Shown: positions 2,199-62,976, counted from the first letter of the stretch. The stretch: 64,000 nucleotides of DNA from a virus (IMGVR_UViG_2574179769_000003:13748-77747), one strand, 5' to 3'. The notes: generated from the letters alone by a model not told the origin. A program made the numbers and translations.

Positions 2199-4350
2199 TT
2201 ATATATTTAACCATGTATTTCTACTTAAGTTTTCTTTTTTTAGTATTGCTCTATTGACCGTATCTAAATCTCCTATATGGAAACACTTTTCTTTCATTCT
2301 TGTAAGCCCAACATAAATCAAATTGCTATTGAGCATATAAGTGTGACTTGATGGTGTAAATAAAATTACCACCTTGGCAGCGGAACCTTGAAATTTATGC
2401 AGCGTACAAGAATATGCTAATTCGACATTTTGCATATCCGTCTTTTCATATCCAACAAGCAAACCATTGAAATCTATTACAATCAAGCCTCTTTTTGTAA
2501 TATCAACTATTACCCCTGATTCACCGTTTGCAATAAACGTTTGTTCGTTGATAAAGTCATAACAATCTTCGCCCCACATTGTTCCCTTTGAAACAAGAAA
2601 AGCTTTTCGATTATTTTTTGTTTGCATTACAATATCGTTAACATAAAAATTTGTGTTATGCGCTTCGATATGAATATCTGACACCTTACGTTCTTTGTTA
2701 GCTATTGGTTGTAACAATCTGTTAATATTTATACACCCATAATCACCTTTGCGATATGATGACAATACAACCACATCTGAGGTAGAATATCTTTCCAATG
2801 TTTTCGCATAAACTTTTTTTTATACAGTCTAATCCAGCCTCCTTGTCATAGTTCATAAATAAATAATCTTTGTTTTCTCCAAATGCAGTAACTTTATTAT
2901 CATATTTTGTTAGATACAGTTTACAATTTCTTACATCAGTAGCTACTTTCATCAATCCACCCTCGCCATATCTAAATACCTTTGTCAGCATGGTTTTAGG
3001 TATTTTTTTTGATGTCAGTAAGTCATGCATTACGTTTCCACAACCTACTGATGGTAACTGGGCAGGGTCACCTATTACTAGTAGTTTGGTTATATTAAAG
3101 TCGATTGCTTCCAATACAGTTTTGAACAAGAATACATCTGCCATCGAAAACTCATCGATTATAAGCACATCGCAATTCAATTTATTAAACGAGTTATATC
3201 TCCATGTAGGCGGTTGATACCCCAATCCAGTATGAATTGTTTCGGCTTTTGATCCAGTATATTCCGATAAAACTTTGGCAGCTTTTCCAGTTGGTGCAAA
3301 CAAAGCAAACCACTTACTCTTATCTGTTAACATATTAATAATAGCTTTTGCTGAAAACGACTTTCCCGTTCCTGAATATCCGACTAAAATACTAAATTGA
3401 GATTTACATAAATTATGAATGCTAGACAACTGATCATCAGTCAATTCGTATTCATCAATAGTTCTGTAATTTTCAGGATTAACTTCGTATATATCATTGA
3501 TTTCTAACGCCTCATTTATTCTGTATTTTATATACATTTCGGCTTCGTATGTAACTTTTCTCGATACAAAAACATCATTATTTTTATCCTTATTGTAATA
3601 AATATCATCATCTTTGATTGCTTCAAAGAAATGTTGTGAACATTCAGGGGTTACACTTTTAACGATTGATAACAATTTTAGAATATTTATTCTAGTACTT
3701 CCGTTATTTTCAGTTTCGGTAAGATTATATAAAATGCACTCTCTACACCTTTGTAAAGAGGTTCTTAAATTATAACCGAACTCAACAATTCTGTTTTTTT
3801 GAAGTTTTAAAAGTAATTCATCTGCACTTTTAAAACCAATTCCACTCAAAGAACACATACATTTATATGGTTCTTGAATAATTTTTTTACGTACAATTTC
3901 GATTGAAGTATACTTGCTGTACATTTTTCTTAATACATTTAATGAAATATATCCTTTAAATTCATTAATAAGGTCAATTAACATAAAATTATCAATTATT
4001 TTATTCTTGATTTTTTCAAATGTAACATCTTTAATACCTTTAACTAATGACAAATCAACATCTTCATTATCCAGAACCATTTGGATAATATTCGGATAAT
4101 GAAGATACAATTCTGAGGCTTGCCTTTCTGTACATATAGTTCTAAGAAATTGATATGTTTCTTGCTGATTCACTGGTTTATCTCTTGATATCGAAACTAC
4201 TTTATATGTTGTTCCATATTTGTTTTTAGTTGGTATTCCAGTAATTTTATAGTCAGTATTTAAATCCAATTCAGATATTTCTCCCATAATAGACACATTT
4301 CCGTAATTATTTGCAATTACCCTAGGATTTGATTTAAAATCAACATTCAT
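2199..4350 (-). CDS. RecD/TraA-like SF1 DNA helicase (two ORFs joined across an A8 homopolymer frameshift near 2806..2813)
   Basis: Walker A LVGYSGTGKSF, Walker B VLIIDEFSM, VIGDPAQLPSV motif; the downstream fragment carries AYSCTLHKFQGS (helicase motif VI) and YVGLTR. Removing one A from the A8 run fuses the frames (DCIKKVYAKTLERYSTSD). Confidence 0.75.
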
Positions 4351-4424
4351 AGCATATATCCTAAAATTTTCTTTAGAGAAGGTACATCTATTTACTTGCC
4401 CTGTAAATACCGTTTCTTTTTCTT

Positions 4425-7400
4425 CTATAGTTTTATCACCTCATAATCATTTAATATTTCTTCTACTTCATCAGTTGCTATCCATTTCCCTTCAGCATCA
4501 GGTCGCTTTTTAAATTCTTTATCTAACTCCTTTATGCTTAAAACCGAAAACTGGTCAAATGGGTTGTCTCTGAATTTTTTTCCTCTTTTAATTCTTGTTT
4601 TTATCTCTTGTCCATTGTTTAAGTTTCTTATAATTAATCTTGGGGTTGTTGGATTATTTCCTATAACAAAATCTATAACTATATAATACATATTGTTTAT
4701 TTCAGAGTTTGAATAATCAGTATATCCTAAATTTTCAATTTCAAATTTTATCTGCTTTACTACTGGCATTGGTTTTGGGCAAACTTTCTCTAAAGTTATT
4801 GATAGTTCTTTCAAAAGGCTCAAATTATCAATATCTCTATATTGTTTTGGAGTAATTTTTTTTGAATACTTCTCTAAATAATATTCCGATATTCCTATTT
4901 TTTCTAATTTAGATTTTGAAATAATTTTAGCGTTTCTTAATTGAATGTATTTATTATAAACTTCTTCCAAATAAACGTTATTGCCAAAATCCGAAAAATA
5001 ATTAAGACCAATCAAAATCCTTGTTTGTCTTTCATCTAATGATGTTTTACTCATATCATCTAATAATTCTATAAAAGAACTATAGTTATTTTTTGCTAAT
5101 TCAAACAACTCTTCTGCGATCTGACCATTACAATATTTTATACTCTCAATGCCTTGATAGATTGAATTTGTTTTCTTATCCATATAAAATTCAGCCTTAG
5201 AATATCCAAATCTTATTCCATTAACATAACAACCTTTTTGGTTTATATAATTTTTAATATTTTTCATTTTATCAGCATCGCTTTTGTAAATATTTAGTGC
5301 AGCAGTAAACGTCTCTAATGGATAATAATGTCGCAAATATCCACAAGCAAATCCTAAGAATGAATATGGATCAGAATGATTCTTACTAAATAAATACGAA
5401 CTTGCATCTTCTATTACTTTTAAAAAATTGACAATTAATTCTTCTGATTCATTCTCTTTCACCCCATAATTTTCTTTCATAGTTTTAAAAAAGCCCTTTT
5501 TTATATCAGGAATATATTTTTCAGTACCAGTTTTTTTAGCAAAACCACGTCTTATTACATCTGCTTGACCCATCGAATATCCACAAAATATATGCAAGAA
5601 TTCTATAACTTGTTCTTGATATACGAGATACCCTAATGTTGGCGCCAGGAATTCATTTAATGCATAATGTCCATTATCTCTATATAATCCTTTAGCTAAA
5701 CTATCACGATAAGATGCGCCCGCAGGCCTTATTGCCCCATTTGCCATAGACATTAAGTCTATATATGAAAAATCTGGATTTTTTTCTCTTATTTTTTCAA
5801 TTACTTCTGGCTTTAATATATCTTTTAAATAATTACCTGCAAAATCTGATTCAAATTGAAAAATCAATGTGGTATCTTTAGCTAAATCTTCCCAAACATT
5901 CATATCAGTAAAATCCATATTTTCAGGTAATAAAAAGTCTATTTTTGCAAGCTTGCAGGTTTTATAAATTAGTCCAACACAGTCTAATCCAAGTACATCC
6001 AGTTTTACATAATTTAAAGAATCAATTTCTTTCATGTTGATTTGTGAAATTGGGTTTTTGTTTGTTTTACTTCTAAACGTTCCAAATTTTCCTTCAATCG
6101 GGTAAGGCGAAACTACTAGTCCAGCAGGATGAGAACCTACAGAAACTATAGTGCCTGATACCAAATCAACATATTTAAATAATTTTGGATATCGTTTTCG
6201 GTATAATTCATCAATTTCAAACTTTTTGTTATCATTTAAGAATACTGCATTGCTAATTTCTTGAGTTTCATTTAGCGACATTCCCAAAGCACGACCGATA
6301 TCCTTAATTGCACCTTTCATTTTGATAGTGTTAAATGTAATAATATCGCAACAATAAAGACCATCTCTTTTAAACAGATAATCTCTTACCATACCTCTGT
6401 CTTCATTAAACCAATCTGTGTCAATATCTGCTAAGGTAATTCTTTCGGTATTCATAAATCTTTCAAAATTCAAATTATATTTAATACTATCTATTTCAGT
6501 AATTCCCAACAGATATGCAATTACACTTCCAGAAACCGACCCTCGTGAGTATCCAAAATTCACTCCTTGTTTTTTTAGATATGACTTGTAATCTTCTTCA
6601 AGCAACAAAAAATCAATTGCCTCATTATGCTTATAAGTTTGCAACTCATAATTAATCCTTTGAATATAGTCTTTGTAATTTGGAAATTTGTTAATCCCCC
6701 TATTTTTTACACCTTCAACAATTTTTTTCAGTAATACACCTTCAGAATCGTCATACAATTTCGGATATTTTTTTGAATAATCTAATCTGAATTCTTCAAC
6801 CATATCACTCATTATGTTTGTATTCTCAATTGCTTGAAGATACACTTCTTCTGGTAATGCATTTTGAATTTTATATGCCTCAACTAACTCATCATATGTT
6901 TTGAAAGACATATCCCAATTATTTTCATCATTTCCAAAGTTCACCCTTTTACCAATCTGCAAAACTCTTCGCCCCTCTAAATCCTCTTTTGTTAAAGCGT
7001 GAGTGTCAGTTCCAGCGATTAACGGTATTCCAGTTGTATCACTTATATTCTTTAAATATTGATTATATTTTTTTGAAAAGCATCATTATGATGTTGCACC
7101 TCTAAAAAACATCTATGCTTGTTTTTTATTAATAAATTTAAAAATCTTTTTTGAATCGCTTTATCTCCCTTTGCAAGAATGCCACCTACGCAAGCTGTAG
7201 TAATGATAATATTGTCGCTGGTTTCTTCCAATTCTTTTAAGCTAATTCTAGGGTGATAATATTTATGATCTTCTTCAAACGCAATTGAAGATAGTTTATT
7301 TAGCTCTTCAACCCCATTGCCATTTTTTGCTATTAAAACACAATGATAATTATCTCGAATCTTCTCAGATAATTCTTCGGTAACATAAAATTCTTCAGCA

Positions 7401-9922: not shown

Positions 9923-11342
9923 CTTCTTTCAAAATATTTCTACTTAAATCATGTTCAACTACTATCTGATATGTATTGGCTGCACCCTCTCTGTTTTTAA
10001 CAATAAATATTATTTGATAATGCTTATTATCAGCCAATCTTACTGGCACCTTTGACAATCCATTTTTACCAGCATACGTATAGATATTTAACGCCCGTTT
10101 ACCGCCTGGTCTTTCATCGTCAAATAATGTTCTTATCATCAAACAGGTACTTGCAGGATCAACAATATTTTTTGCCATACCAATATTGTCTTGAGTATAA
10201 TATCTTTGCATTACACTTCCTTTTGATAATTGAAATGTGATAAGTATATGTACATTTTTACTCTCTGGTTTTACAATATCGTTAATTTCAACCATGTTTT
10301 GTTGCATTTGCAACCATGCATGACTCTCAACCTTTCCTGCATCCATTTTATAAGTGTCTAGTGCAAAATATCTAATACCAAGACTTATGTATTTATTCAT
10401 AATTTTAATAACATTTTTAGTTTTATACTTTTTAAAAGGAATTATAGTAATAACATTATCTTTGTCTTTATTTTCTATCCATTTTGCTGCTTCAAGTAAT
10501 AATTCTTTGGTCTCATTTTTGAAAGAGCCATCTCTAACTGTTTGTTTTTGAAGATCTTTTTTTATAACATTATTGGCCACATATACCAAAAATTCACGTT
10601 GCCATTTTTTTAGTCCATCCTCATTAAGCATAATGACTATTTTCTCATTATTTTCAATAATGCTTGGTATCGTAGAACTTCTTAAAAAAGCAGATTTTCC
10701 AACATTAGAGAGCCCACCAATTAAAGTAATTGAACCCATATATTGTCCGCCAGTTTCATTAGTTAACATCCTCATGTTGTGATATGGTAAACCAACTGCC
10801 AACCCTTCATCTAATTCATCAATTAAATCTCTAATTTTGTAAGATATACTGTATGACTTCATATCTGTATCAGCATTGATGAATATATCATTAAACATAC
10901 ATTCATATTCTTCATAGATTTCTTCAGTTGTACAATCTATAAATTCTTTTAACTTGTTGTCATCAACAATAATTCCCATTTTACAGAGTTTTATTACTAT
11001 GTTCCATTTTTTCAATTCACTAATATATCCATTAAAATTATCTTCAGAAATATATTCGATAGCATTTTTTATAGTATTATAACCGCCAAAATTTTCATAA
11101 ACTGTTTTTAATTTTGGATGTTTTTCTAAATATAAACCAACAGTAATAACATCTAATACATTCTTTTTTTCAATATTATATAAGTCATTCACTATTGCAA
11201 AATATACCTTCCAAGCATTATTGGTAAAATCATTAATGCTTAATTCAACGTTGGATAATAATTCAGGTTTTTTAAATAATATTGAAACTATATTTGCTTC
11301 ACAAGGCAACTTGATTTCAGCAACCTTTTTAATAGTACTCAA
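9891..11342 (-). CDS. dnaB: DnaB-like replicative DNA helicase
   Basis: DnaB N-terminal domain-like start (EANIVSILFKKPELLSNVELSINDFTNNAWKVYFAI); P-loop GGLSNVGKSAF in a RecA-like C-terminal domain. Confidence 0.7.
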   Translation of the reverse strand: MSTIKKVAEIKLPCEANIVSILFKKPELLSNVELSINDFTNNAWKVYFAIVNDLYNIEKKNVLDVITVGLYLEKHPKLKTVYENFGGYNTIKNAIEYISEDNFNGYISELKKWNIVIKLCKMGIIVDDNKLKEFIDCTTEEIYEEYECMFNDIFINADTDMKSYSISYKIRDLIDELDEGLAVGLPYHNMRMLTNETGGQYMGSITLIGGLSNVGKSAFLRSSTIPSIIENNEKIVIMLNEDGLKKWQREFLVYVANNVIKKDLQKQTVRDGSFKNETKELLLEAAKWIENKDKDNVITIIPFKKYKTKNVIKIMNKYISLGIRYFALDTYKMDAGKVESHAWLQMQQNMVEINDIVKPESKNVHILITFQLSKGSVMQRYYTQDNIGMAKNIVDPASTCLMIRTLFDDERPGGKRALNIYTYAGKNGLSKVPVRLADNKHYQIIFIVKNREGAANTYQIVVEHDLSRNILKEVGFTNVPMDY

Positions 11343-15556: not shown

Positions 15557-15831
15557 TTAGATTTTTGTTTCAATTTATAAAACCAAGTGCCATCAACAAT
15601 TGTTTTATTTTTATCTAGTTGTTTTTTGACGCTAAAATTTAACTGTCCTTTTCTCAAATAAAATGAGTCAAACAAAGGTATAAATGCGCTTGTATCTATG
15701 TTATTTTCTTTAAGAAATTCATTAGCCAATTCGACCATTTTCTTTTTATGTTCTTTCCAAGTAAAATATTTTTTGTGTAAGGGCGAATCTCTAACAACTT
15801 TAAAGAAACGTTCTTTTCTTTCTTCCATCAA
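15553..15831 (-). CDS. hypothetical protein
   Basis: 92 aa ORF, 4-bp overlaps on both sides. Confidence 0.4.
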   Translation of the reverse strand: MMEERKERFFKVVRDSPLHKKYFTWKEHKKKMVELANEFLKENNIDTSAFIPLFDSFYLRKGQLNFSVKKQLDKNKTIVDGTWFYKLKQKSN

Positions 15832-16757
15832 TCTGCTACTTTCACGAATAGACTAGGCTTAATTAATTTAATTTGATTTGTAATCTCAGCTTGCAAAACT
15901 TTAAAATTTATAGTTGGTTTTTTATAGTCTTGAACAATATTCCAAATTTCTTCATCAATTATAGTGTGATATAGTACACTTAATAAACATGGAATTAATC
16001 TTTTTCTATCATTTATAGGATCAAAATTATCACCATTTATAATTTTTTGATATTCTTTTTCAACTAATGCCTCTGTTACATATTTTTTAGATATTTTTGT
16101 TTCAATAGAAGTTGTATCTTCGTTTAGTTGAGCTTTGGATTTTTTACCAGAGTTATTGAGATACTCACTATGAATTGCTTTTGCCCATGTTTTTCTACCA
16201 TACTTGTTAACATATTGATAATTTTTAATTACAATTCCTTCACCATACCCCATACCTTCTTTAATAAGGTAGGTATTAGAGTTTAATTCTTTAACAATTT
16301 GATCAATTGTAGGATTCTCTAATATATTAATAACTGGAATATAATCAATCTTATATTTATCTAGTAGTGGACTATATTCTTCAAAACTTAAATATCTTAT
16401 ATCTTCGCCTAAATCTTCGCAAACGTCAAATACATAAAATTTATCCCATGCATCATCATTGTAAGTTTTTAGCGAATGGGGTTTTAAAAACTCTCCAAAC
16501 AACCTGTGGTTAGGATGTTCTCTTAAATAATTTGTTATATTTTCATTTTTATTATAATGATTATAAAACCCTTGATTATCTTGAAATAATGTCAGCTCTC
16601 TTCGTCTACTTCCACAACCTAGTGTTCCATCGTCATTTAACCAAATTGAAGCATTAGTTCCATCAATTTTAGGTTGGATAAATACCTTTCCATTTAAAAT
16701 ACCCTCGGTTTCAGAAGTTCCGAGTCTTGCAATATGTTGATACTTTTTAAACTCCAT
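15828..16757 (-). CDS. Rnl2-family RNA ligase (nucleotidyltransferase KxDG motif)
   Basis: IQPKIDGTNASIW (KxDGxN lysine-adenylylation motif), FGEF and FYVFDV motifs; the order matches T4 Rnl2-like ligases. Confidence 0.65.
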   Translation of the reverse strand: MEFKKYQHIARLGTSETEGILNGKVFIQPKIDGTNASIWLNDDGTLGCGSRRRELTLFQDNQGFYNHYNKNENITNYLREHPNHRLFGEFLKPHSLKTYNDDAWDKFYVFDVCEDLGEDIRYLSFEEYSPLLDKYKIDYIPVINILENPTIDQIVKELNSNTYLIKEGMGYGEGIVIKNYQYVNKYGRKTWAKAIHSEYLNNSGKKSKAQLNEDTTSIETKISKKYVTEALVEKEYQKIINGDNFDPINDRKRLIPCLLSVLYHTIIDEEIWNIVQDYKKPTINFKVLQAEITNQIKLIKPSLFVKVAD

Positions 16758-17063: not shown

Positions 17064-17600
17064 TTTTCCCATTTTTCTACCTCATTCTTTCTATTTATTT
17101 CTATTCATCAATTTTCTTTTTTTACATATTTTTCCCATTTATACAATTTACAAACTGTATATTTGTTTATTTTCCTAAACATCAAGATACAATAAAACCA
17201 TTCTGATATCTTTAACATATACCAGTACTTGCACTTATTCTTCTACGACACCAATAATTTCAACTTTCTCACATCTGATTTTACCATCTGTTTGATAAGG
17301 TACGCACACACCCATTAGCCATTCGTTTCTAATAAGAACTTTATATATTGTTCGACCTGAAGTTGTTATGTCTCCTTTAACCCAATCTAAAGTTGCTACA
17401 TTTATACCGCACCCACAGCCACTTGTTCTATTGAAATTGACATTTTCTTCTATTACTTCTCCTATTTCAATTTTCCAATTAGGATTTGGTTTATAGCATA
17501 GACCAAATGTTTTATAGGCAATATATCCCTCATCAGTTTTTTCGAAATATTTATTCATAATTTCGATTGCTGATGGTAAGCCTTTTGCATTACTTAAATT
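17064..17600. repeat. copy 1 of a ~0.53 kb direct repeat (3' end of a pentapeptide-repeat gene plus the downstream region); copy 2 at 51062..51605
   Basis: Near-identical to 51062..51605; the differences I found on a read-through comparison are single-base homopolymer length changes (T7/T8, T4/T3, A4/A5, T3/T4, T4/T5). Confidence 0.85.
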
Positions 17601-18125
17601 TGCACCTCTTAAATCTGCATTATTTAAATCTGCATATCTTAAATTTGCATTACTTAATTTTGCACCACTTAAATTTGCATTACTTAATTTTGCACCACTT
17701 AAATCTGCATTATTTAAATCTGCATATCTTAAATTTGCATTACTTAATTTTGCACCACTTAAATTTGCATTACTTAATTTTGCACCACTTAAATTTGCAT
17801 ATCTTAAATTTGCACCACTTAAATCTGCACCTCTTAAATCTGCATTACTTAAATTTGCATTACTTAATTTTGCACCACTTAAATTTGCATATCTTAAATT
17901 TGCACCACTTAAATCTGCATAACTTAAATCTGCATTACTTAAATCTGCATTACTTAAATCTGCATAACTTAAATCTGCATTACTTAAATCTGCATTACTT
18001 AAATTTGCATTAATTAAATTTGCGTCAATTAAATCTGCTCTAGCTCCACCATATTCATTATTTAACCATTTTTCATGAAGATTTAATATTTTATTTAGTT
18101 CTTCTTGTGTTATTTGTTTTAGCAT
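17235..18125 (-). CDS. pentapeptide-repeat protein with a Cys-containing C-terminal domain
   Basis: About 35 tandem A(D/N)LSx pentapeptides encoded by 15-bp DNA repeats (17580..18050); C-terminal domain ...[18 protein letters not shown]...; paralogs at 51278..52110 and 55268..55522. Confidence 0.85.
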
Positions 18126-18156: not shown

Positions 18157-18897
18157 TTAGTTTGCTATATATTCAAAACATGGCATTGGTTGAAATTTAA
18201 ATAAATTTTTTTTATGCATTTTATCAATTGTGTTTTTAATATCTAAATCATCTATTTCCTCAGTGCGAATATATTTGTCTAAAATTTCATAGGAAAAACC
18301 AAAATTTTCTTCATCGGTTTTCCCACAAAGTCCATCAGTTGGAACTTTATCTATTAGTATATTGGATAGTCCCAATTCTTTGCCAATAAGTTTTACTTCT
18401 GTCTTTGTAAGTTTTGATAGTGGGCTAAAATCCCCAACACTATCTCCATATCTGGTTGAATATCCTATCCAATCCTCTGATAAATTACAAGTATTGACAA
18501 CTCTGCCATTAACCGATTGAGAATATGCATATAATGTAGCCATTCTAATTCTAGCAGGAAGATTTATAATAGTTTGTTTTGAAACCTCAACACTTGGTGG
18601 AAATTGATTATTAATAGCAGTTACTGCATTAAATATATTCATAACATCAAAACTGATCCCAAGTTGTCCACAAAGAAAATAAGAATAGCTGATATCTTCT
18701 TGTTCTCCACAAGGCATAAGCAATCCTCTTACTCTTTCTTTCCCTAATGCCTCTACACATAAGGCTGCTGCAACTGAAGAGTCAACTCCGCCAGATATTC
18801 CAACAACAGCATTACAATCTTTGCCATTTTTATCAAACCAATCTTTTATAAAAGAAACTATTTCATCTTTTACTTTTTTAGCATCAAACTTATACAT
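18157..18897 (-). CDS. nadE: NH3-dependent NAD+ synthetase (PP-loop ATP pyrophosphatase)
   Basis: VGISGGVDSSVAAALCVEALG PP-loop SGGxDS motif and overall NadE-like layout. Confidence 0.7.
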   Translation of the reverse strand: MYKFDAKKVKDEIVSFIKDWFDKNGKDCNAVVGISGGVDSSVAAALCVEALGKERVRGLLMPCGEQEDISYSYFLCGQLGISFDVMNIFNAVTAINNQFPPSVEVSKQTIINLPARIRMATLYAYSQSVNGRVVNTCNLSEDWIGYSTRYGDSVGDFSPLSKLTKTEVKLIGKELGLSNILIDKVPTDGLCGKTDEENFGFSYEILDKYIRTEEIDDLDIKNTIDKMHKKNLFKFQPMPCFEYIAN

Positions 18898-18898
18898 G

Positions 18899-19303
18899 CT
18901 AAATCACTCCTTTTTCTATTTTTTCAATTAATGTATTAAGATGATCATATACCATAGGCAATCCACCTCTATCGTCTAAATAAGCATTGGCATATATCTT
19001 ACGTCCATTTACTTTTACCATTGAATTACAATTAATCCCATCATAAGGAATTCCATATCTATTGCAATAAGATTTTATTTCGGAAAGTTTATCTACTCCA
19101 TTACCCGTAAAGATAATAATTTGTGCATATCTATCCCATCTTTTTAATAAGTTAATAACATTTGTATATGTTCGTCCAAGCCTATGGAAATCATAAATTG
19201 TATCATCAAAATCTACAGCAATGATTAATTTGCCATATTTTATAAACTCATCTTCTAATCTTTGATAACAATTATCTGGGCTTAAATAATAGTCCATTAT
19301 CAA
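18899..19303 (-). CDS. small HAD-superfamily phosphatase (DxDxT)
   Basis: IIAVDFDDTIYDF motif I, C-terminal YLDDRGG acidic motif; size and motifs are compatible with a nucleotide/polynucleotide phosphatase. Confidence 0.45.
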   Translation of the reverse strand: MIMDYYLSPDNCYQRLEDEFIKYGKLIIAVDFDDTIYDFHRLGRTYTNVINLLKRWDRYAQIIIFTGNGVDKLSEIKSYCNRYGIPYDGINCNSMVKVNGRKIYANAYLDDRGGLPMVYDHLNTLIEKIEKGVI

Positions 19304-19731
19304 ATCTCACTTCTAACTTTCATTAAAATTTTGCCTAGTTTGTTTTCTCCTACAATATCTTTACACTTAGGACACTCACAATTGCCCCAAATATTATCAT
19401 GCCAACCAGTCGTTCCTTCAATCAATTCATGAGGATATGTATCTAATAACTTTTTCTTTAAATATTGGTGTTGAGTAAATTTTGCTTTAACAATTTCATA
19501 CATATATTTTTCTTTTACTTTTTCCCAATCATCTCTTAAAAGTATTTTTCTCCCTAGTTTCTTGGCTTCGACAGGATTTAAATTTTGAAATTTAATCTTT
19601 TCACTAATTCTAGTTATTTTTTGTGCTTGAAAAGCAGCTTCATTATTAAGATAAACTATCCCATCATATTCAATTGGTGTTTCATAATAATTGCTTAAAA
19701 AACGATATTTACCTCTAAAGTTATCAATCAT
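19300..19731 (-). CDS. NADAR (YbiA-like, DUF1768) domain protein
   Basis: FLSNYY...IEYDGIVYLNNEAAFQAQK...GWHDNIWGNC resembles the YbiA/NADAR fold. Confidence 0.55.
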   Translation of the reverse strand: MIDNFRGKYRFLSNYYETPIEYDGIVYLNNEAAFQAQKITRISEKIKFQNLNPVEAKKLGRKILLRDDWEKVKEKYMYEIVKAKFTQHQYLKKKLLDTYPHELIEGTTGWHDNIWGNCECPKCKDIVGENKLGKILMKVRSEI

Positions 19732-21195
19732 TAAAATTCTCCTTTATTTAATCTTTGACGAATTTGTTCAAATGATTCTTCTCTTTTTAACATACCATTG
19801 CTAAACATTTTTTCTAATGACGTATTTTCTGTAGAAACTAAACAATTATATCCATCTACGCATTTATATCCATCTTCTGTTTTAATAACAGCACAACAAC
19901 CTTTATGAGATTTCTTTAATTTTGATGTGTCTGTTTTAGGATTTTTATAAATAGGGAATTTGAAATTTCCAACTTCCCCATAAGTAGCCTTCATAGCAAT
20001 ACCAAATGTATCTCTTGTATTAACAATAAACTTTCCATCATCTTCAAAAATAGCATGGAAGCAGAACGCTCCTACTCCAAATACAATGTTGTTAGCAGCA
20101 AACCCTAGTTTATATAACTCTTCATAGATTTCTTCGACTTTATTTATAGTACATCCATCCCCATAAATAATGCCAATATGAGGATCTAATACTTTATATC
20201 CTTTACTATTGATACTTCCACCAAATGTTTTCCACAAGAGTTTAATTGTTTCAATTGATATTTCAACAATATCTCCGCTATCAGGTCTAATTAATAACTT
20301 TCCATTGTGATTCATAATTTCTTCTTTGCATTGAGGTAAAATATTTTTTACTATATTCCAATAATCATAAGTATCAGATACCATGCTGAATGAAGTATTA
20401 GGATATAATTCTGTTAATAATCTTTTTACAAAAGTGATTTCATCGCCATCAACTGAGAAGTTAGCTCCCATAACTGCATGCTCTGTAGATACAGCTCCAA
20501 TTCCAATATTTTTATCAGCATTATAATATTCTCTAATATATTGCAATGCGGGGATTGTACTTGTCTTATCAAAAGATAACAGCCATGATGCAGATGTTCT
20601 AATAGAATCTTCTAAACATGACATACCTCTCATTCCAAAGTCTGACATAGCCATTCTAGAATCCATATTATCAACTGTTAGATCATAATATTTGTTTGCT
20701 ACTTCCTTATAAATCTTTCCAATAGTAGCGTAATTACATGTTGGCCATAATTCTACTTGTAGAATACATTCTAGCCATTGTACAACCCACGCAAAATCTG
20801 GATGAGTATTTGTCAATTCAATACAAGGAACTCCCATATTAACAATACTTCCTTCAGGCAATGCTCTAATTAGAATGGGTAGATACCCTAATTTATGAAG
20901 ATTTATGATTGCGTCCAAATCATAGTTTCCTTCGCCTAATTGTGTGTCCATATAGGAATTATATTCTCCAATAACCTCATCTATTGGTTTGTTAAAAAAG
21001 TTATTATTAAAAATCTTCGACAAGATACTTTTTGATAAACTCCTGCAAACCAAAGAACACCATTTTATCATACTTCTCTGACATCGCTTTTCTAGGTGTC
21101 CAATAAGAAACCAATTTTGTTAAATCCTTAGGAAACATTCGCAGATGTGTTTGTTTATATGTATCCGACAATAATAAGGTTGTTAAATTTTTCAT
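19731..21195 (-). CDS. nadV: nicotinamide phosphoribosyltransferase family protein (NadV/NAMPT or Namat-like); frames joined across a T5 run near 21010..21020
   Basis: N-terminal fragment LLSDTYKQTH...VFFGLQEFIKKYL matches the NAMPT N-terminus; the main ORF has LIRPDSGD and EHAVMG-region motifs. T5 to T4 fuses the frames (LVEDFNNNFFNKP). Confidence 0.8.
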
Positions 21196-21209
21196 TTCAT
21201 TTTCCTTTC

Positions 21210-22040
21210 TTAAACCTTTATAACTTCAATTTTCTCGTGTTTTCCAGTAAATAAACTATTAGTAGTAAACAGTCTTTCTACTGTGCCATCTTCCAGTGAT
21301 TTAATTAAAGTTCCTCTTTCTCTATCTAAAATACTATTTTCGCAATGACTTACATAAGCATAAATCTTTTTTGCTCCAAGTTCTTTTAATTTATTTGCAC
21401 CATAATACATTGATCCACCATAACTACAAATATCATCAAACATTAATACGGTCTTGTCTTTCAAATCAATTTCGTTTGTAATTATTTCAAGCCCCATAAT
21501 TTTCCCGCTTGTCCAATCACGATGTTTTACTCCATAACAAGTTTTAAACCCACGAAATAAATCTTCGTATTTTTTACTAGCCCCATTATCGGGGAAATAA
21601 ACAATTAAGTCATCTTCATTAATATTTTCGTTAATATTAATATCTCTTAATATAAGTCGTCTTACAAATACATTTAAGTCAAGTAAATATAAATTATCAA
21701 TCAAAGCTTCGCTAACTGGCGAATGTGGATCAATTGATAGCACTTTTTTAAATCCTAATGAATTTATAATATTGGCGAAATATTTTAATGTAAATACATC
21801 TCTCTTTGTCTTGATTCTATCCATTCTTGCGTTAGGAATATATGGCATATGTAATTCATTTTCTTTTCCACCATGCTCTTTTAAATAATTTGTAATATAA
21901 ATTAAAGCAATTAATTCTTCTTCATTTTCATAATACCATTTGATAATATTAACTGTTTTAATTTCGCATGAAGGAGTTAAATGTAATGTGCCATCAGGAA
22001 AATGATTTAGTTTTAATTTACTATCATTAATTAAAATCAT
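21210..22040 (-). CDS. prs: ribose-phosphate pyrophosphokinase family protein (Prs- or Adps-like)
   Basis: VLMFDDICSYGGSMYYGANKLKELGAKKIYAYVSHC corresponds to the PRPP-binding loop of Prs-family enzymes. Confidence 0.7.
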   Translation of the reverse strand: MILINDSKLKLNHFPDGTLHLTPSCEIKTVNIIKWYYENEEELIALIYITNYLKEHGGKENELHMPYIPNARMDRIKTKRDVFTLKYFANIINSLGFKKVLSIDPHSPVSEALIDNLYLLDLNVFVRRLILRDININENINEDDLIVYFPDNGASKKYEDLFRGFKTCYGVKHRDWTSGKIMGLEIITNEIDLKDKTVLMFDDICSYGGSMYYGANKLKELGAKKIYAYVSHCENSILDRERGTLIKSLEDGTVERLFTTNSLFTGKHEKIEVIKV

Positions 22041-22041
22041 T

Positions 22042-22573
22042 TTATATCACCTCTATTTGGCAGGAATTTATTGTTTTAAGTGCATATTTATGATTTTCTG
22101 AAGTTGTTCCAGCACAACACTTTGAATTAATAACAATATGTATTTCTGGACAGAACGTCTTAATTAGCAATGCGTTACTTACTACACAGATATCAGTACA
22201 TAATCCAACAATTTCAATATCAGTAAACTGATGTTTTTTTTACATATTGAGCTAATTTTACTGACCCAAATGTTTTCTTTTCAAATAATTGTTTTGGTTT
22301 AGGTTTAATTAATTTTAATATTTCTCCATTCAAACACCAACCATAGCTCCCCTTAATACAATGAATTATTGGTAAATTTATACCTTCGTTTGTATTGAGA
22401 TAATTCTCGTTATGTGTATCTAAAGTAAATACTATTCTTGAATCAGGCTTGTCTTTATATTCTTTAATTTTATCTATAACATTTGGTAAAATTGCCCTAG
22501 CTTCATTTGTTCCCAAAGAACCATCAATAAAGTCATTTTGCATATCCACCACAATTAATAATTTCTTTTTCAT
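22042..22573 (-). CDS. pncA: isochorismatase-family cysteine hydrolase, nicotinamidase (PncA)-like; frames joined across an A8 run at 22232..22239
   Basis: N-terminus LLIVVDMQNDFIDGSL...TLDTH; the shifted C-terminal part has IVGLCTDICVVSNALL with the catalytic Cys. A7 instead of A8 fuses the frames. Confidence 0.6.
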
Positions 22574-22582
22574 TTCTTTCTC

Positions 22583-23338
22583 CTATTGTTCTAGCATAAC
22601 TAAATTGTTAATATAATCTCTTTCATCTGTAAATAATGGTATGTTATAATCAATAACCCAATTTCCATCACCATCTTTAATACAACAAACACCTCTTTGT
22701 AATTCATTGGGTAATTTATCCCAATGAACACCTTCCTCAACAGACAGTTTCTCTTTTAATTCATCACAATTCAAGCCTTGCATTTCATTATGTGAGAATC
22801 TAGATTGAGCCAATGCTTGAATACTATTTCTAATAGCATCCTGTTGTCTCCAAATCAAGCAGTTCACAACTTCATGCTTAGGCAAATTAAATGCCCTTGA
22901 ATCAAATGAAGCTTTAAAGCATCTCTTTTCCCATAAATTTTCTTCATCTGGAAAATATACCGCACTAAAACAATTTTTTGATTCAACTTCTTGATTGAAA
23001 TATAAAGTGGCTAAAGCTGCACTTGTTGAAACCATTTTTTGAACTTTATTATCAAACCAAGCATCGCTGTTGATATTTTTATAGTCTACTAAAACAAGTG
23101 TTATCTCATCGCTTTGACAATAAGCCAAAACGCATCCTTGAATTTGTTGACATAATTTTTTCATTGTATGCTTCATAACATCACAAAAGTCTATATCAAA
23201 CGGTTTATTTAGACCTTTAGTAAATGTATGGAAAGCTTTGCCATCAACACGAATAATAACAGGCAATCTTCTTAACAGCTTTGTTTGTGATTGATTTTCG
23301 TATTCTTTCATACGATTTCCTAATTTTGTTTTATCCAT
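22583..23338 (-). CDS. Thg1-like protein (tRNA-His guanylyltransferase family, 3'-5' nucleotidyltransferase)
   Basis: RLPVIIRVDGKAFHTFTKGLNKPFD matches the Thg1 palm-domain signature (VRxDGRxFHxF...KPxD). Confidence 0.6.
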   Translation of the reverse strand: MDKTKLGNRMKEYENQSQTKLLRRLPVIIRVDGKAFHTFTKGLNKPFDIDFCDVMKHTMKKLCQQIQGCVLAYCQSDEITLVLVDYKNINSDAWFDNKVQKMVSTSAALATLYFNQEVESKNCFSAVYFPDEENLWEKRCFKASFDSRAFNLPKHEVVNCLIWRQQDAIRNSIQALAQSRFSHNEMQGLNCDELKEKLSVEEGVHWDKLPNELQRGVCCIKDGDGNWVIDYNIPLFTDERDYINNLVMLEQ

Positions 23339-31401: not shown

Positions 31402-32279
31402 CTATTTTTCTAATAGTTTGCTAATATCAATCATATTATTATTGCTTCCACTAACAGTTGGTAATTCTCCATCCCATTTTTCAATCCATTGTTCAATTAA
31501 AATTTGATCTGTCAACTGACTTGTCTTAACAGCATTTGCATTTGCTTCGCCTTGAGCTTTAATCAACTTTGTTTCCGCTTCTTTTTGAGCTATTTGCTTG
31601 TTTTGCTCTGCTGTTTCTACATTTTTCTTAGCAACAGCTTCTTGTTTGATTGCATTTTCAATTTCAGCTCCAGCATCCATATCTTTTATGGTTAGATCTT
31701 TAAAGTTACGCCTTCTGAAGCATATTTTTCTTTCAATAAATTACTTGCTTTACCAATAACTTCATTACGTTTGTCACCTAAAATATCAATAATATTATAT
31801 TGAGTACATACTTCTGATAAAGCACTTTGAGCATAGTTGGCAATAATATTTTTATTTAATGCTTCTAACGTCTTATATCCCTTATATACTTTAAACGCAT
31901 CTTTACTAGATACCTGGTATTTAATATTTACTACCATTTCCAAAAATTGAGCATCTGAAGTTTGAACTTTAATTTTTTCTCCTGTTCTTTCTTGGACAGT
32001 TGTATCAATTTCATAAATAGTATCAAATGGTGTTTTAAAGTGTACCCCCTCACCTAAAGTGTTTTCACTAGTTCCACTAAATGAACTATATTTAACGCCA
32101 ACTGTATTTGCTGGAACAACTGCAACACACATTGAACTAATAAATAAAACTAACGGAATTAATGCATATAATCCTCTTTTATTTGGCTTAAATTTTTCTT
32201 CTGTAAAATCAAATAGCCCCCATACAACTAAACTAACAACTGTAATTAATAAAATAGCCTGTAAAGTAAATTTAAACAT
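31402..32279 (-). CDS. SPFH/band-7 (prohibitin/HflC-like) membrane protein; frames joined near 31682..31690
   Basis: N-terminal TM helix then SPFH core (GVKYSSFSG...QERTGEKIKVQTSDAQFLEMVVNIKYQV); the shifted C-terminal fragment FKDLTIKDMDAGAEIENAIKQEAVAKK... is the typical SPFH C-terminal coiled-coil. Confidence 0.6.
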
Positions 32280-38134: not shown

Positions 38135-38848
38135 TTATTTGCCTTGATTATTATAATAATCTTCTATCAGGTTTCTATAAGTTATTTCCCAATAGAAACC
38201 TGAATTTTTGTACCCTTCATTTTCAAAAGGGTCTCTATCTTTTCGTTGTTTTACTTTGTTTTTCTGAAAGTTTTCTTCTTTCAAATTGGAGCAAACAAAA
38301 TTTACGATACCTGATATTCTAAGTTCATCTATTGAACACTTAAACAAATTAGCGACATCATCTCTTATAAATCTACCAATAGATTTTCTTAAATAATTCT
38401 CGTATTGAGAATCGTTTTCAAATTTTTTTGACACATTATTTATGTGTACTGTTTTAAATATATAGTCTTTATAGCACTTCAAAGGAAATGCTTTGTACCC
38501 ACTATATCTTGTATGAACAAACTCTAAAGACTTAAGAATTTCTACAAGATTTCTAGATACAGCTATTTCATTTTCGTCTATTTCTAAAGTTATATTTTTT
38601 TTAAAATATTCACCATCTCCTAGCATAACAAGCTCATTTTTTTTAATAATTGATGATTTTCTTATTTTAGAAATGGTTTTCAACTCTAAACCCTCATATA
38701 ATGCTAACAATATTGCCTTTTTCTCATTTGACAAATTGCTATTTTCTAATACCTTATAAAACCTTGAGTCTGATATAAATTTTATACCATCCTCAATTAT
38801 ATTGCCATATTCAAATCTTTTATCGTACTGTATGTAATTGAGTTCCAT
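38135..38848 (-). CDS. hypothetical protein
   Basis: 237 aa ORF. Confidence 0.45.
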   Translation of the reverse strand: MELNYIQYDKRFEYGNIIEDGIKFISDSRFYKVLENSNLSNEKKAILLALYEGLELKTISKIRKSSIIKKNELVMLGDGEYFKKNITLEIDENEIAVSRNLVEILKSLEFVHTRYSGYKAFPLKCYKDYIFKTVHINNVSKKFENDSQYENYLRKSIGRFIRDDVANLFKCSIDELRISGIVNFVCSNLKEENFQKNKVKQRKDRDPFENEGYKNSGFYWEITYRNLIEDYYNNQGK

Positions 38849-38883
38849 TTCTCCTTGAATAACTAAATAAGAGAAATATTTGT

Positions 38884-39117
38884 TTAAAAGGATCTGAAAG
38901 TTTTTTTTGTTCCCCTATTGTAGTTTTCCATACATTCTAATAACTCATCTGGAGTAAAATGACTTATTTTTTTTCCAACAAGCATTTCAAACTTGTTTAC
39001 TATTTTTGTATATATAGAAAAATACTCATTGTCTTTATTAAAATCAGGGTTATCTTCCAAAATATATTGAACATAATTATCAAAATTAGTTATATAATCT
39101 TTCTTCATTTTGTCCAT
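38884..39117 (-). CDS. hypothetical protein
   Basis: 77 aa ORF downstream of a consensus promoter. Confidence 0.4.
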   Translation of the reverse strand: MDKMKKDYITNFDNYVQYILEDNPDFNKDNEYFSIYTKIVNKFEMLVGKKISHFTPDELLECMENYNRGTKKTFRSF

Positions 39118-39179: not shown

Positions 39180-40161
39180 TTACATTTTTAACAAAACCTG
39201 TTTAGAATCGCTTGTACCATGAGTATAAACATTCATAGTTACAGTTGATCCTAAAGAATGCCCACACTGCTCTTGTACAAAAGCCAAATCCTTAGTTGTT
39301 CTATATAGTTCGCTCGTGTAAAAATGTCGCAGCATATGTGGAGTAATGGTGCCTTGAGAATATTTTTTAAAAGCCTTAATAATATTATCCTCTTTAATTC
39401 TATCACCACTTCTTGTTAGAAATAATGCATCACATTTTGGACTTAAATAACTTCTGTATTTAAGCCACTCTTGAATAGCATCAGAAGCAGATTTTGACAT
39501 ATAAACCACTTCGTATTCTTCTTTGATGTAAGAGCCTTTCCTTAACACATCAATATAAGGTAAGTCTTCATCTAAATGCACGTCGTTCAAATCTAGTCCA
39601 CACAACTCAACTTCTCTCAAACCTGTTCCTTTTAGAACTTGGTATATCGAAAAGTATTTATTTTTTGATATTAAATTAGGAATTTTTTTTCAAGTTATTT
39701 TCTAACATAATTAAATCTTCTGTTTTGGGCAACTTGTTTGAATTTTTTTTATGTTTAGTTTTACATACAACTGTAACACTCCTTTTTATTGGAGTATTCT
39801 CAATTATTCTTTCTTCAACAAGGTAATTGAAGAAAGATGCTAATTGATTTATTTTAGTGTTTACTGTAGAATGCTTATACTTCTTTACTTCTATTAAATA
39901 AATCAGATATTCTCTTACAGTTCCTGGTGTTACAATATTAATATCATCAAAACTGTCTATAACATTCTTTTCCAAACACCATTGAATAAAATTATTGATA
40001 GTGCTTAGATAATTTAACAATGCCTGATTACTTCTTACAGTACTATTGTTAAAATAATTTGCAAACTGTTTTGGAAATTTATACTGATTAAGCAATTTAT
40101 TTAATTTAGTTTTATTTTGTAGTTGCTTTTCATCTTTATACATATTTATATTCCTTTCCAC
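39180..40161 (-). CDS. tyrosine recombinase/integrase (SAM-like N-domain + catalytic domain; frames joined across an A8 run at 39683..39690)
   Basis: C-terminal ORF has ITPHMLRHFYTS (HxxR) and CGHSLGSTVTMNVYTH (catalytic Tyr); the N-terminal ORF 39676..40161 resembles the Phage_int_SAM domain. Confidence 0.7.
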
Positions 40162-57555: not shown

Positions 57556-58011
57556 TTAATTTAATTCTTCAAACCAATAATGAAAGGCCAACGCCTCCCA
57601 ATGACACCCAGCCACCCCCGTGTATCCATCATAAAAACATAGATTACGCTCACCATCACAAATCTTGTACCCAAAATAATATGGGTTGTTTGGAAATTGT
57701 TTATCATATGTATCAATATTCCTAACTTCATAATATTTTGGTAATTCATTGTAAAAAGTGTTCGTGATAAATTCGTATATATCTATATAAGCACTCCATT
57801 CATCATATGACATATCTTCTTCACCAAATGCAAATGCACGAGGGCGATCTAATGTCAATACGCCTTCTATATCATTGAGATTTATAGTTTCTTTTGTTAC
57901 GATATCAAAAAACCACTTGTACCCAATATAGTTGAAGTATTTAGAAATCAAATTTATATTTTTTTGATATTCTTTTAACTCTTCTCCTTTTAATTTGAAG
58001 ATATTTTTCAT
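57556..58011 (-). CDS. hypothetical protein (first gene of the leftward operon)
   Basis: 151 aa ORF at the edge of the divergent control region. Confidence 0.45.
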   Translation of the reverse strand: MKNIFKLKGEELKEYQKNINLISKYFNYIGYKWFFDIVTKETINLNDIEGVLTLDRPRAFAFGEEDMSYDEWSAYIDIYEFITNTFYNELPKYYEVRNIDTYDKQFPNNPYYFGYKICDGERNLCFYDGYTGVAGCHWEALAFHYWFEELN

Positions 58012-58484
58012 TAATTCTTCCTCCTTAAATTAATTTTATTTTTAATTAATAACGCCAATCAGTTAGCTTTTAATGTATGAAAAATACAACTTTTTGATGT
58101 ATAGTTTAAACATTTATTGATAATTATATTGTATCTTTGTTTCTCTTAATTATCAACAAATTTTAAACATCAACCAAAGAAGAGCTTTTTTGATTGGCAT
58201 TATGGTATTAAAAATAAAATGTTTATTTTTAATTTTTATGTTAAAAACCAAGATTGAATTAACCTTGGTTGCAATGATTTAAATTTGATTAGTTAAGTAG
58301 GTACTTGTAAATAATAAATACAAGCGTATCTAATCACCCGATACTATCAAGGATTTTCACCATCTCAAGCCAATCATTATTGCTATGTTATCACAACATT
58401 GCAACTACTGTTTAGGGTATTAGGAATCTAACGACTTTCTAACTCTCTAAATATATTGGTAGAGATTTGATATCAAGTATCTAA

Positions 58485-58538
58485 TTGTCAATGAACTAAT
58501 AAGAAATAATTACCCAATCTCCCAAAGTTCATTGACAA
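58485..58538. promoter_or_regulatory. 13-bp perfect inverted repeat (TTGTCAATGAACT ... AGTTCATTGACAA) overlapping the -35 of the plus-strand promoter; operator-like
   Basis: Arms at 58485..58497 and 58526..58538. Confidence 0.55.
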
Positions 58539-58560
58539 TTATTGATTAATAATATATAAT
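58532..58560 (+). promoter_or_regulatory. consensus sigma-70 promoter TTGACA-17-TATAAT (plus strand)
   Basis: TTGACA 58532..58537, TATAAT 58555..58560. Confidence 0.65.
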
Positions 58561-58586
58561 CGTAATTGACCTTTAGGGGTCTGGTT

Positions 58587-58637
58587 GGTTAATCGTTTCA
58601 GTTTTTGCGGACTTTCAACGATTAACCCTTTTTTTTT
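58587..58637 (+). terminator. promoter-proximal hairpin + T9 (GGTTAATCGTT ... AACGATTAACC); intrinsic terminator or end of a ~70-nt small RNA
   Basis: 11-bp perfect stem, 19-nt loop, followed by CTTTTTTTTT; begins ~25 nt after the predicted TSS of the 58532..58560 promoter. Confidence 0.5.
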
Positions 58638-58704
58638 ATTTCTTGTGATATTTGTAAGTTTAGGATTGATTCGATCAATCTTATCTCTCCTACCTTACAA
58701 CTTA

Positions 58705-58733
58705 ATTATACACGAATTACTTGTATTTGTCAA
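58705..58733 (-). promoter_or_regulatory. consensus sigma-70 promoter TTGACA-17-TATAAT (minus strand) with conserved downstream leader AAGTTGTAAGGTAGGAG
   Basis: Minus-strand reading: TTGACA 58733..58728, TATAAT 58710..58705; points into the leftward gene block. Confidence 0.6.
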
Positions 58734-58951
58734 GTATTCCTTGTATTTTTTTGAGGATTTCTTTTTTTTATAACTTCCTTAGATTTCAAATCATCCTCAA
58801 TCAATTTTTTAATATAGCCTGCTTTATTGTCTAAATTATCAAGATAATCAAGTATTTCTTTATCTTTATTTTTAGAAAATTTGATAGTGATAACTTTAGA
58901 ATTTTTTTTATCACTTTTAGCATTGGCTTTTCTTTTAGCTTCACTCACCAT
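58730..58951 (-). CDS. small basic protein, possibly ribbon-helix-helix DNA-binding
   Basis: 73 aa; KVITIKFSKNKDKEILDYLDNL...AGYIKKLIEDDL resembles a CopG/RHH fold; flanked by the two duplicated minus-strand promoters. Confidence 0.4.
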   Translation of the reverse strand: MVSEAKRKANAKSDKKNSKVITIKFSKNKDKEILDYLDNLDNKAGYIKKLIEDDLKSKEVIKKRNPQKNTRNT

Positions 58952-59086
58952 AATATCACCTCGCTATATTTATTATAGCACAATTCAACGCTATGGTTCA
59001 TAAGGCTTTTATTTGTAAGATATTGACATTTAGCTAAGTCAAGTTTTTGATCTTTTGACTTAACCTTTCCTTTACCTTACAACTAT

Positions 59087-59115
59087 ATTATACATGACAA
59101 ACGCTAAAAAGTCAA
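59087..59115 (-). promoter_or_regulatory. sigma-70 promoter TTGACT-17-TATAAT (minus strand), paralogous to 58705..58733 including the leader ATAGTTGTAAGGTAAAGG
   Basis: Minus-strand reading: TTGACT 59115..59110, TATAAT 59092..59087; drives ORF 58730..58951. Confidence 0.6.
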
Positions 59116-59198
59116 TACTTTTTTATAAATTATTTAATTATTTTAATGAATTATTATATATTAAATTAAATCAATTTATTAAAACGATCAAATATGGT

Positions 59199-59227
59199 TT
59201 GACAATTAAATAATACAAGTATATTAT
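59199..59227 (+). promoter_or_regulatory. sigma-70 promoter TTGACA-17-TATTAT for the rightward HTH gene
   Basis: TTGACA 59199..59204, TATTAT 59222..59227, RBS TAGGAGG, ATG at 59250. Confidence 0.6.
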
Positions 59228-59249
59228 TAATTATAGGAGGTATTATATT

Positions 59250-59792: not shown

Positions 59793-59799
59793 CCTATGC

Positions 59800-61000: not shown

Positions 61001-61042
61001 AATCAAACTTGCAATTTTGATATATTTTTTTACTTTGCTAGT

Positions 61043-62601: not shown

Positions 62602-62614
62602 TGCATAAAGATGA

Positions 62615-62975: not shown

Positions 62976-62976
62976 A

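Follow-up and report, generated by a model that had tools for sequence, protein, structure and literature searches.

NAD+ depletion is among the commonest antiviral strategies of bacteria. Here we describe an island of NAD-related genes in a 64,000-nucleotide stretch of viral DNA (IMGVR_UViG_2574179769_000003:13748-77747; "the window" below means this whole stretch), which belongs to a large SPbeta-like prophage of the gut bacterium Thomasclavelia cocleata. The original prediction had placed six adjacent genes of NAD metabolism at 18157-22573, and all six lie there on the minus strand, with matches to the expected families and at exactly the coordinates first given. Read in the direction of transcription (22573 to 18157), they encode a nicotinamidase (PncA), an ADP-ribose (ADPR)-pyrophosphate synthetase (Adps), a relative of the transferase Namat, a NADAR protein, a small HAD phosphatase and an NAD+ synthetase (NadE). 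No gap between neighbouring genes exceeds 14 nucleotides (nt), and some of the genes abut or overlap, a tight spacing that fits a single operon; the Adps and Namat-like genes are adjacent, with a spacer of 14 nt. The features of the island are as follows (aa, amino acids; ADPR-PP, ADPR-pyrophosphate; all on the minus strand).

22042..22573, minus strand: PncA-type nicotinamidase, Pfam Isochorismatase; 176 aa after removal of one A, 117 + 42 aa in this assembly
22234..22241, minus strand: A8 homopolymer, site of the PncA frameshift; A7 in sister assemblies
21210..22040, minus strand: Adps, Prs family, 276 aa; assigned by scores and a neighbour-joining (NJ) tree
19731..21195, minus strand: predicted Namat-like ADPR-PP:pyridine transferase; 487 aa after removal of one T, 62 + 446 aa in this assembly
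21009..21013, minus strand: T5 homopolymer, site of the Namat-like frameshift; T4 in sister assemblies
19300..19731, minus strand: NADAR (YbiA-family) ADP-ribosyl glycohydrolase, 143 aa, accessory; PF08719, TIGR02464
18899..19303, minus strand: small capless HAD phosphatase, BT0820 type, 132-134 aa, accessory
18157..18897, minus strand: NH3-dependent NAD+ synthetase NadE, 246 aa; PF02540, TIGR00552

The PncA and Namat-like genes are each split by a homopolymer run, which the original prediction had overlooked, and deleting one base from either run restores an intact nicotinamidase or NAMPT-family protein with perfect family motifs. The window is 100% identical to contig PHNQ01000039.1 of assembly GCA_002803405.1; assemblies that are 99.9% identical (GCA_024622895.1, in a 159-kb contig, and several Logan assemblies) read A7 and T4 and encode the intact proteins of 176 and 487 aa. 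Over the 29 kb compared with sister assemblies, all 8 indels are homopolymer changes of a single base, in both directions, accompanied by 0-2 substitutions; besides the A8 and T5 runs they fall at 39690, 38890, 38252, 38216, 31706 and 31349. Such indels also split three further genes of the window, those for an integrase (39180-40143) and a Band_7 protein (31402-32279) and one of 324 aa (38135-39108), all of which a near-identical Logan assembly has whole. Because every indel is a single-base homopolymer change, unrelated genes are broken too and substitutions are close to zero, the two frameshifts almost certainly arose by sequencing error in this single assembly. That the island is instead a decaying remnant, with real frameshifts and with PncA and the Namat-like protein inactive in this strain, accords with the presence of both frameshifts in the deposited sequence, but the same pattern of indels speaks against it and we regard it as very improbable. 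Stop-codon recoding was also considered as a cause of the broken open reading frames (ORFs), as a phage with a related cassette, Phass-1, uses genetic code 15; it was rejected, since the upstream frames end in TAA TAA TAA or in nonsense and since a one-base shift restores perfect family motifs, contrary to recoding.

The four core enzymes

The closest solved relatives of PncA are nicotinamidases and pyrazinamidases (5zn8, 1ilw, 2h0r, 3o90 and 3pl1), and Pfam Isochorismatase is matched on both of its fragments; its catalytic residues D10, K99 and C125 and its metal-binding residues D52, H54 and H71 are all in place, each of them shared by 187-189 of 189 homologues. NadE matches PF02540 (NAD_synthase) with E=6e-51 and TIGR00552 with 166 bits, above the cut-off; its SGGxDS loop is invariant among 188 homologues, and it is of the short type, with 2e18, 3p52 and 3fiu as the closest solved relatives. 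More generally, PncA, NadE, Adps, NADAR and the HAD protein show no variation at their catalytic residues in alignments of 31-189 homologues.

The Prs-like protein scores 133.8 bits against the validated Adps of phage SPbetaL1 and 70.5 bits against the best Prs in the PDB (Bacillus subtilis, 1dkr), and it matches phrog_619 with 216 bits. In an NJ tree of 104 representatives with three solved Prs proteins as outgroups, a long branch sets the single radiation of Adps proteins apart from Prs, and the protein of the window lies inside this radiation, with the SPbetaL1 group as its neighbour. The catalytic lysine (K162 in SPbetaL1) does not vary, window included. The PP-loop, described as a remodelled donor site in the structure of ICP1 Adps (PMC13586617), reads DDICSYGGS in the window and DDLSSFGGT in SPbetaL1; since this motif alone does not split Adps from archaeal Prs (DDIISTGGT against DDICSYGGS), membership of the Adps clade rests on the tree and the scores, by which the protein is identified as an Adps.

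By the same kind of evidence the NAMPT-like protein is identified as a relative of Namat, not as NadV or Nampt: it scores 371.6 bits against structures 9w5x/9w5w, whose sequence and numbering agree with the SPbetaL1 Namat of PMC12774641, and about 187 bits against human NAMPT. The Namat core is conserved in it (the equivalents of D11/Y13, F, R and R306/D308, and the TRD end of the adenine clamp). The clamp as a whole reads GAFCFH + AIFEDDGKFI + VNTRD, that is, with an insertion of 10 aa (9-10 aa in the clade), and has Met at the position of R40.

Adenylyltransferases and PncB were sought as well. Among the genes called at 3-64 kb there is no NadD and no Pfam match to CTP_transf_like or NMNAT, the motif G.F.P.H.GH occurs in no frame of the window and in none of the first 216 related loci, and no PncB was found in the window, the Namat-like protein being its only PF04095 protein. 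Because the genes at 3-64 kb include no NMN (nicotinamide mononucleotide) adenylyltransferase and the Namat-side enzyme is linked to Adps, the second NAD+ reconstitution pathway of phages (NARP2) is excluded and the core is of the NARP1 type. The original prediction had seen in the NAMPT- and Prs-family genes a phage NAD+ reconstitution pair, which tree and bit scores bear out in its Adps and Namat form, the NARP1 arrangement; of its two candidates for the NAMPT-family member, Namat is upheld and NadV is not. Shared with NARP1 (bioRxiv 10.1101/2024.02.11.579819; PMC12774641; PMC13586617) are the adjacent phage genes of the Adps and Namat clades, the catalytic lysine of Adps, the catalytic core of Namat and the TRD end of its clamp. 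With NARP2 (Nampt and Nmnat, as in Vibrio phage KVP40) and NARP3 (PnuC and NadR; PMC13464706) the island has in common the restoration of NAD+ by phage-encoded enzymes; unlike them it has no Nmnat, NadR or PnuC, and its NAMPT-family protein, which is linked to Adps, groups with Namat.

The pyridine pocket and its linked genes

In the crystal structure of SPbetaL1 Namat with nicotinamide, residues F189, R192, D215, A242 and R306 hold the pyridine, and D215 provides a hydrogen bond (PMC12774641). The Namat-like protein of the window retains the equivalents of F189, R192 and R306 and has serine in place of both D215 (S212) and A242 (S239). Human NAMPT D219, the counterpart of D215, reads the amide, and in the human nicotinate phosphoribosyltransferase the structurally equivalent residue is Ser214 (PMC4442680); D219S in human NAMPT is listed among mutations that switch substrate affinity (PMC4919578). 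Adps- and Namat-specific residues, which the original prediction had proposed to check, are thus kept in part (K162 of Adps; the F, R and R of the Namat pocket), whereas D215, A242, R40 and the clamp are changed.

An unbiased scan of 482 alignment columns, comparing 90 canonical with 19 variant Namat representatives, found 8 columns in which the two classes have no residue in common (SPbetaL1 positions 184, 185, 187, 213, 215, 240, 242 and 304). Six of the 8 are no more than two residues away from one of the five that hold nicotinamide in the crystal structure (hypergeometric p=1.6e-7), and the discriminating columns match human H191, G217, D219 and A244, which are known sites of specificity or inhibitor-resistance mutations. 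At position 213 the glycine is replaced in the variant class by K, R or N (K210 in the window), which places a basic or polar group next to the site. Because the aspartate is lost and a basic or polar residue is gained, the pocket is predicted to be of the nicotinate type: the loss of an acid and the gain of such a group are what a carboxylate ligand would require.

We compared 390 related loci in all: 310 from IMG/VR, gathered with four Namat queries and one profile and scored by purpose-built hidden Markov models, and 80 from metagenomes. Sorted by the residues at positions 215 and 242, the IMG/VR loci have the following linked genes.

D/A pocket, 109 loci: PncA within 7 kb in 0, NadE within 7 kb in 0
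E/A pocket, 7 loci: PncA within 7 kb in 0, NadE within 7 kb in 0
S/S pocket (the class of the window), 91 loci: PncA within 7 kb in 87, NadE within 7 kb in 85
A/S pocket, 103 loci: PncA within 7 kb in 102, NadE within 7 kb in 103

Neither PncA nor NadE lies within 7 kb at any of the 116 loci with a canonical Namat (D or E at position 215), and at the 194 loci with serine or alanine there (S/A-type) PncA is found in 189 and NadE in 188; conversely, every relative linked to PncA or NadE has one of these two residues at position 215. At each of the 11 incomplete S/A-type loci the contig runs out on the side that should hold the missing gene. Clustering at 70% identity, of sequences that are related to one another, leaves 11 variant and 78 canonical clusters (Fisher p=3e-14). 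In the independent metagenome sample all 80 loci are A/S; 31 of them are flanked by 6 kb or more on both sides, and in 29 of these PncA, Adps, Namat and NadE occur together. Gene order varies among subclades while the set is kept (PncA-Adps-Namat-x-NadE in some, Adps-Namat-Macro-NadE-PncA in others), and the recurrence of the same set around the Namat-like gene, seen across hundreds of independent contigs, far exceeds what chance would give.

The PncA/NadE-linked variant is also very common in gut phages. In a collection of 5.8 billion proteins, the best 120 homologues of the Namat-like protein are all S/S; of the 150 best representatives at 50% identity, some 45-47 have the variant pocket and about 100 the canonical H-G-D-A, and the variant group comprises more than 7000 protein clusters at 90% identity. 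Two divergent representatives (P0271 and P0249) have essentially no relatives in IMG/VR, and the metagenome loci were used in their stead. Many Namat homologues are of 570-1114 aa and are matched by the query in two or three stretches, with breaks typically near query residues 226-253 or 312 (for example P0207, P0243, P0274, P0362 and L021 6989-8938; one form of 646 aa represents 2406 sequences), which suggests inserted elements (inteins or homing endonucleases) or fusions.

A predicted route to NAD+ through nicotinate

The operon most likely serves to rebuild NAD+ from the debris of NAD-destroying immune systems, and apparently by way of nicotinic acid rather than nicotinamide. On balance we read it as an extended, deamidated form of NARP1. 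A host NADase (SIR2, TIR, SEFIR and similar) would cleave NAD+ to ADPR and nicotinamide; PncA would convert the nicotinamide to nicotinate, and Adps would convert ADPR and ATP to ADPR-PP; the Namat-like enzyme would then join nicotinate and ADPR-PP into nicotinate adenine dinucleotide (NaAD), which NadE would amidate to NAD+. The four core genes would be self-sufficient, requiring no adenylyltransferase, PncB or NadD, and a pathway complete in four genes would explain both the strict linkage and the change in the pocket. We offer the mechanism as a specific prediction; each substrate and product, and the role in counter-defence, is likewise predicted.

Compared with NARP1, the island would thus have a four-gene core with PncA and NadE and NaAD instead of NAD+ as the product of its transferase; the amide-reading aspartate is replaced by Ser or Ala, the equivalents of human H191, G217 and A244 are altered, and the SCH clamp carries its insertion of 9-10 aa. 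With Preiss-Handler salvage (PncA, PncB, NadD and NadE) it shares the first and last enzymes and the deamidated intermediates, the steps of PncB and NadD being replaced, as predicted, by Adps and a Namat-like transferase acting on ADPR-PP. The original prediction had inferred a deamidated route from PncA and NadE and an island larger than the two-gene NARP cassettes. Both enzymes are indeed present; the route probably does not run side by side with the amidated one but is built in, because the Namat-like pocket has lost the amide-reading aspartate. The enlargement likewise concerns the four-gene core, NADAR and the HAD protein being accessory.

An unlikely alternative is a canonical NARP1 with a booster, in which NAD+ would be made directly from ADPR-PP and nicotinamide, and PncA and NadE would work in parallel through the PncB and NadD of the host. 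The Adps/Namat pair is of the NARP1 type, PncA and NadE are ordinary Preiss-Handler enzymes, and Ser or Ala at position 215 might just relax specificity, all of which would suit such an arrangement. It leaves unexplained, however, why the pocket is remodelled at 6-8 positions exclusively in the PncA/NadE-linked class and why none of the 116 canonical loci is linked to either gene, and the PncA of the phage would compete with Namat for nicotinamide.

A Preiss-Handler route based on phosphoribosyl pyrophosphate (PRPP) would have the Prs-like protein make PRPP and the NAMPT-like protein make nicotinate mononucleotide (NaMN), to be completed by host NadD and by NadE, or by NadE converting NaMN to NMN. 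The nicotinate-type pocket would serve it equally, the adenine clamp is broken by an insertion in this clade, Namat uses PRPP in vitro, and NadE is of the short type that includes 3fiu. We nevertheless consider it improbable: the Prs-like protein lies in the Adps clade, its neighbour there being an enzyme for which PRPP synthesis was shown to be absent; the genes called at 3-64 kb include no adenylyltransferase, whereas 94% of NARP2 phages have one; and accessory genes expected to yield ADPR (Macro, NADAR) are strongly enriched in the variant class, which argues for ADPR as the substrate. The Phass-1 lineage joins the variant pocket (A215/S242), PncA and NadE to a canonical clamp of 11 residues (GAYTYQYVTRD, with the aromatics kept and Ala for Ser at position 2), for which reason ADPR-PP is probably still the donor. 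In Phass-1 itself, a gut phage (L002, OQ749652; 6459-10897), the cassette is PncA-Adps-Namat-HAD-NadE and stands beside a large tRNA array, in a genome with code 15 and a suppressor tRNA.

Several points weigh against the deamidated NARP1 reading. The clamp of the window departs from the NARP1 signature GS-X-phi-X-phi-X-phi-TRD (GA for GS, and the insertion) and from the SCL Arg40, so that use of ADPR-PP is less certain in its clade than in Phass-1. D219S changes the preference of the human enzyme, yet does not prove that Ser/Ala variants exclude nicotinamide. Among the relatives of NadE, 3fiu is presumably the Francisella enzyme that amidates, and prefers, NaMN, and a route through NaMN is compatible with this homology. 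The linkage reflects few independent events, in roughly two lineages (the insertion-bearing clade and Phass-1); two of the core genes are frameshifted in this particular assembly; and two termite-gut-like loci have no detectable Adps and/or NadE within 8 kb. These two (L348, Ga0099364_10000115, and L398, Ga0099364_10000097) have full 8-kb flanks and no detectable Adps, L348 also being without NadE; their clamps are divergent (SGS[YH]SMQ...), and they are the sole real exceptions to the four-gene rule.

Known phage answers to NAD+ loss (NARP1, NARP1-AP, NARP2 and NARP3) all act on the amidated side, and the NARP3 paper (PMC13464706), of August 2026, lists only NARP1-3. That a composition with PncA and NadE might be undescribed had been suggested in the original prediction, and our reading agrees: in the papers on NARP1, NARP1-AP, NARP2, NARP3, RyDEP and the Namat and Adps structures, a coverage of the literature that is incomplete, we found no mention of a nicotinamidase, NadE, NADAR or nicotinate-dependent Namat. 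We infer that the island belongs to a distinct and widespread class of NARP1-type operons, serving counter-defence, for which we found no published description. More tentatively, it may house an undescribed reaction (nicotinate and ADPR-PP to NaAD) within a self-contained Preiss-Handler-type pathway of four enzymes, with HAD in place of the Adpp of NARP1-AP and NADAR feeding in ADPR, in a modular slot tuned to the ways in which hosts destroy or divert NAD+. If so, there would be a new pathway and a new enzyme activity, and a large group of gut phages that rebuilds NAD+ via nicotinate and NaAD; the residues at D215 and A242, together with linked PncA and NadE, would give an annotation rule that tells two kinds of Namat apart; and the HAD phosphatase and NADAR would be two candidate accessory enzymes for non-canonical products of NAD+ cleavage such as ADPR-1''-phosphate. 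It may be speculated that fast deamidation of nicotinamide is a counter-move of hosts, which starves canonical NARP1 and led to the substrate switch in phages of gut Firmicutes.

Accessory genes and genomic surroundings

The position between Namat and NadE is variable. NADAR matches PF08719 with E=7e-27 (95 bits) and TIGR02464 with 87.4 bits against a cut-off of 73.7, and its residues S13, K38, E105, D112 and W115 are invariant among 40 homologues. The small HAD protein has no Pfam match; it has the Rossmannoid HAD fold with motifs I-IV (DxDxT, S/T, K, DD). Among the 310 loci and the window, accessory genes lie adjacent as follows.

Macro: 135 loci
Small HAD: 29 loci
NADAR: 37 loci

Macro and HAD were never seen together (Fisher p=8e-14, variant class), and NADAR is found with either. 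Within 7 kb, Macro occurs at 142 of the 194 S/A-type loci (73%), directly adjacent in 127, and at 16% of canonical loci, which matches the 15% share reported for NARP1-AP in canonical NARP1 (bioRxiv 10.64898/2026.01.28.702374); NADAR and HAD are each present at 4-6% of canonical loci. NADAR stands beside both canonical and variant NARP1 cassettes, and the pairing of NADAR with HAD in the window is unique among the sampled loci. HAD and NADAR are interchangeable accessories, not core genes. The island of the window has no Macro gene; the Macro protein of its relatives matches phrog_335, annotated as phosphatase (128 bits for L024 8461-8922), and DarG-type macro domains.

Such accessories would probably widen the range of ADPR derivatives that can be fed into the pathway. 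Because HAD replaces Macro in position, the HAD protein is suggested to take over the job of Adpp or a similar dephosphorylation: it would act on phosphorylated ADPR, for example ADPR-1''-phosphate, like the unrelated Macro Adpp in NARP1-AP. With NARP1-AP (Adps, Macro Adpp and Namat) the island shares an in-operon accessory expected to turn an ADPR derivative into ADPR, and it differs in having an HAD-fold phosphatase, unrelated to Macro, and NADAR in the slot where most relatives carry Macro. NADARs of all tested subfamilies remove ADP-ribose from guanine with release of free ADPR (PMC11125620), and orphan phage NADARs neutralise DarTG1 (PMC11825919); the family is therefore known, as the original prediction had it, for reversing DarT-type ADP-ribosylation of DNA. 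By freeing ADPR from ADP-ribosylated bases, the NADAR of the island could plausibly play a dual role and feed Adps, by analogy with RyDEP. RyDEP beside NARP1 (bioRxiv 10.64898/2026.05.28.727677) and the orphan NADARs likewise bring an ADPR-releasing glycohydrolase together with NAD+ reconstitution genes, although NADAR differs from RyDEP in fold and is known to act on ADP-ribosyl-guanine. SPbeta-like Bacillus phages have a NADAR, annotated as hypothetical and located near Gad1, that shares 58% identity with that of the window (Bacillus phage SPbetaL3, L001; 7915-8352); in the related phage SPbetaL1, about 20 kb lie between NARP1 and the corresponding coordinate.

The island is flanked by genes for a Thg1-like tRNA-His guanylyltransferase (22583-23338) and an RNA ligase (15828-16757), and in some relatives an RNA 2'-phosphotransferase of the Tpt1/KptA family stands between Namat and NadE (L021 8954-9493). 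Tpt1/KptA consumes NAD+ and produces ADPR-1'',2''-cyclic phosphate. These genes hint at a link between tRNA repair and ADPR recycling, and they would accord with a general metabolic booster that supplies NAD+ for the needs of the phage (Tpt1-type RNA repair, NAD-dependent ligases) independently of host immunity; NARP2, moreover, raises NAD+ even where there is no defence system. An ADPR-dependent pathway, however, gives NAD+ only once NAD+ has been cleaved, and all characterised Adps/Namat operons act in counter-defence, so we think a purely metabolic role quite unlikely. The expanded island of L021 further includes an adenylosuccinate-synthetase-like gene, a DUF3307 protein and a YAcAr/YspA SLOG-family protein among its NARP genes (4317-5414, 6218-6607 and 10415-10840).

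The wider prophage carries YorH, YopX, Bro-N/ANT proteins, a DNA polymerase III alpha subunit, an integrase and one tRNA-Met; every ORF at 14-58 kb of the window is on the minus strand, and G+C content is 25-31%. Viral contigs of 60-180 kb in human-associated metagenomes hold relatives of the island, as do the genomes of Lachnospiraceae and other Clostridia. At the DNA level, a search of the phage collection returned no close relative of the window, just short gene-level matches. Promoter and terminator scans over 16.5-25.5 kb performed no better than on shuffled sequence, and we make no claim about operon boundaries. Directly downstream of NadE lies a pentapeptide-repeat protein (17235-18125) with an unrelated C-terminal domain, which may be a DNA mimic or an anti-defence protein; it has 296 aa in the window and 266 aa in a 99.9%-identical sister assembly, so that the number of repeats is variable. 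Near 58 kb the sign of the GC skew flips and genes turn to the plus strand, with a class-V aminotransferase-like gene at the right end (58000-64000), and this switch may mark the boundary of the prophage.

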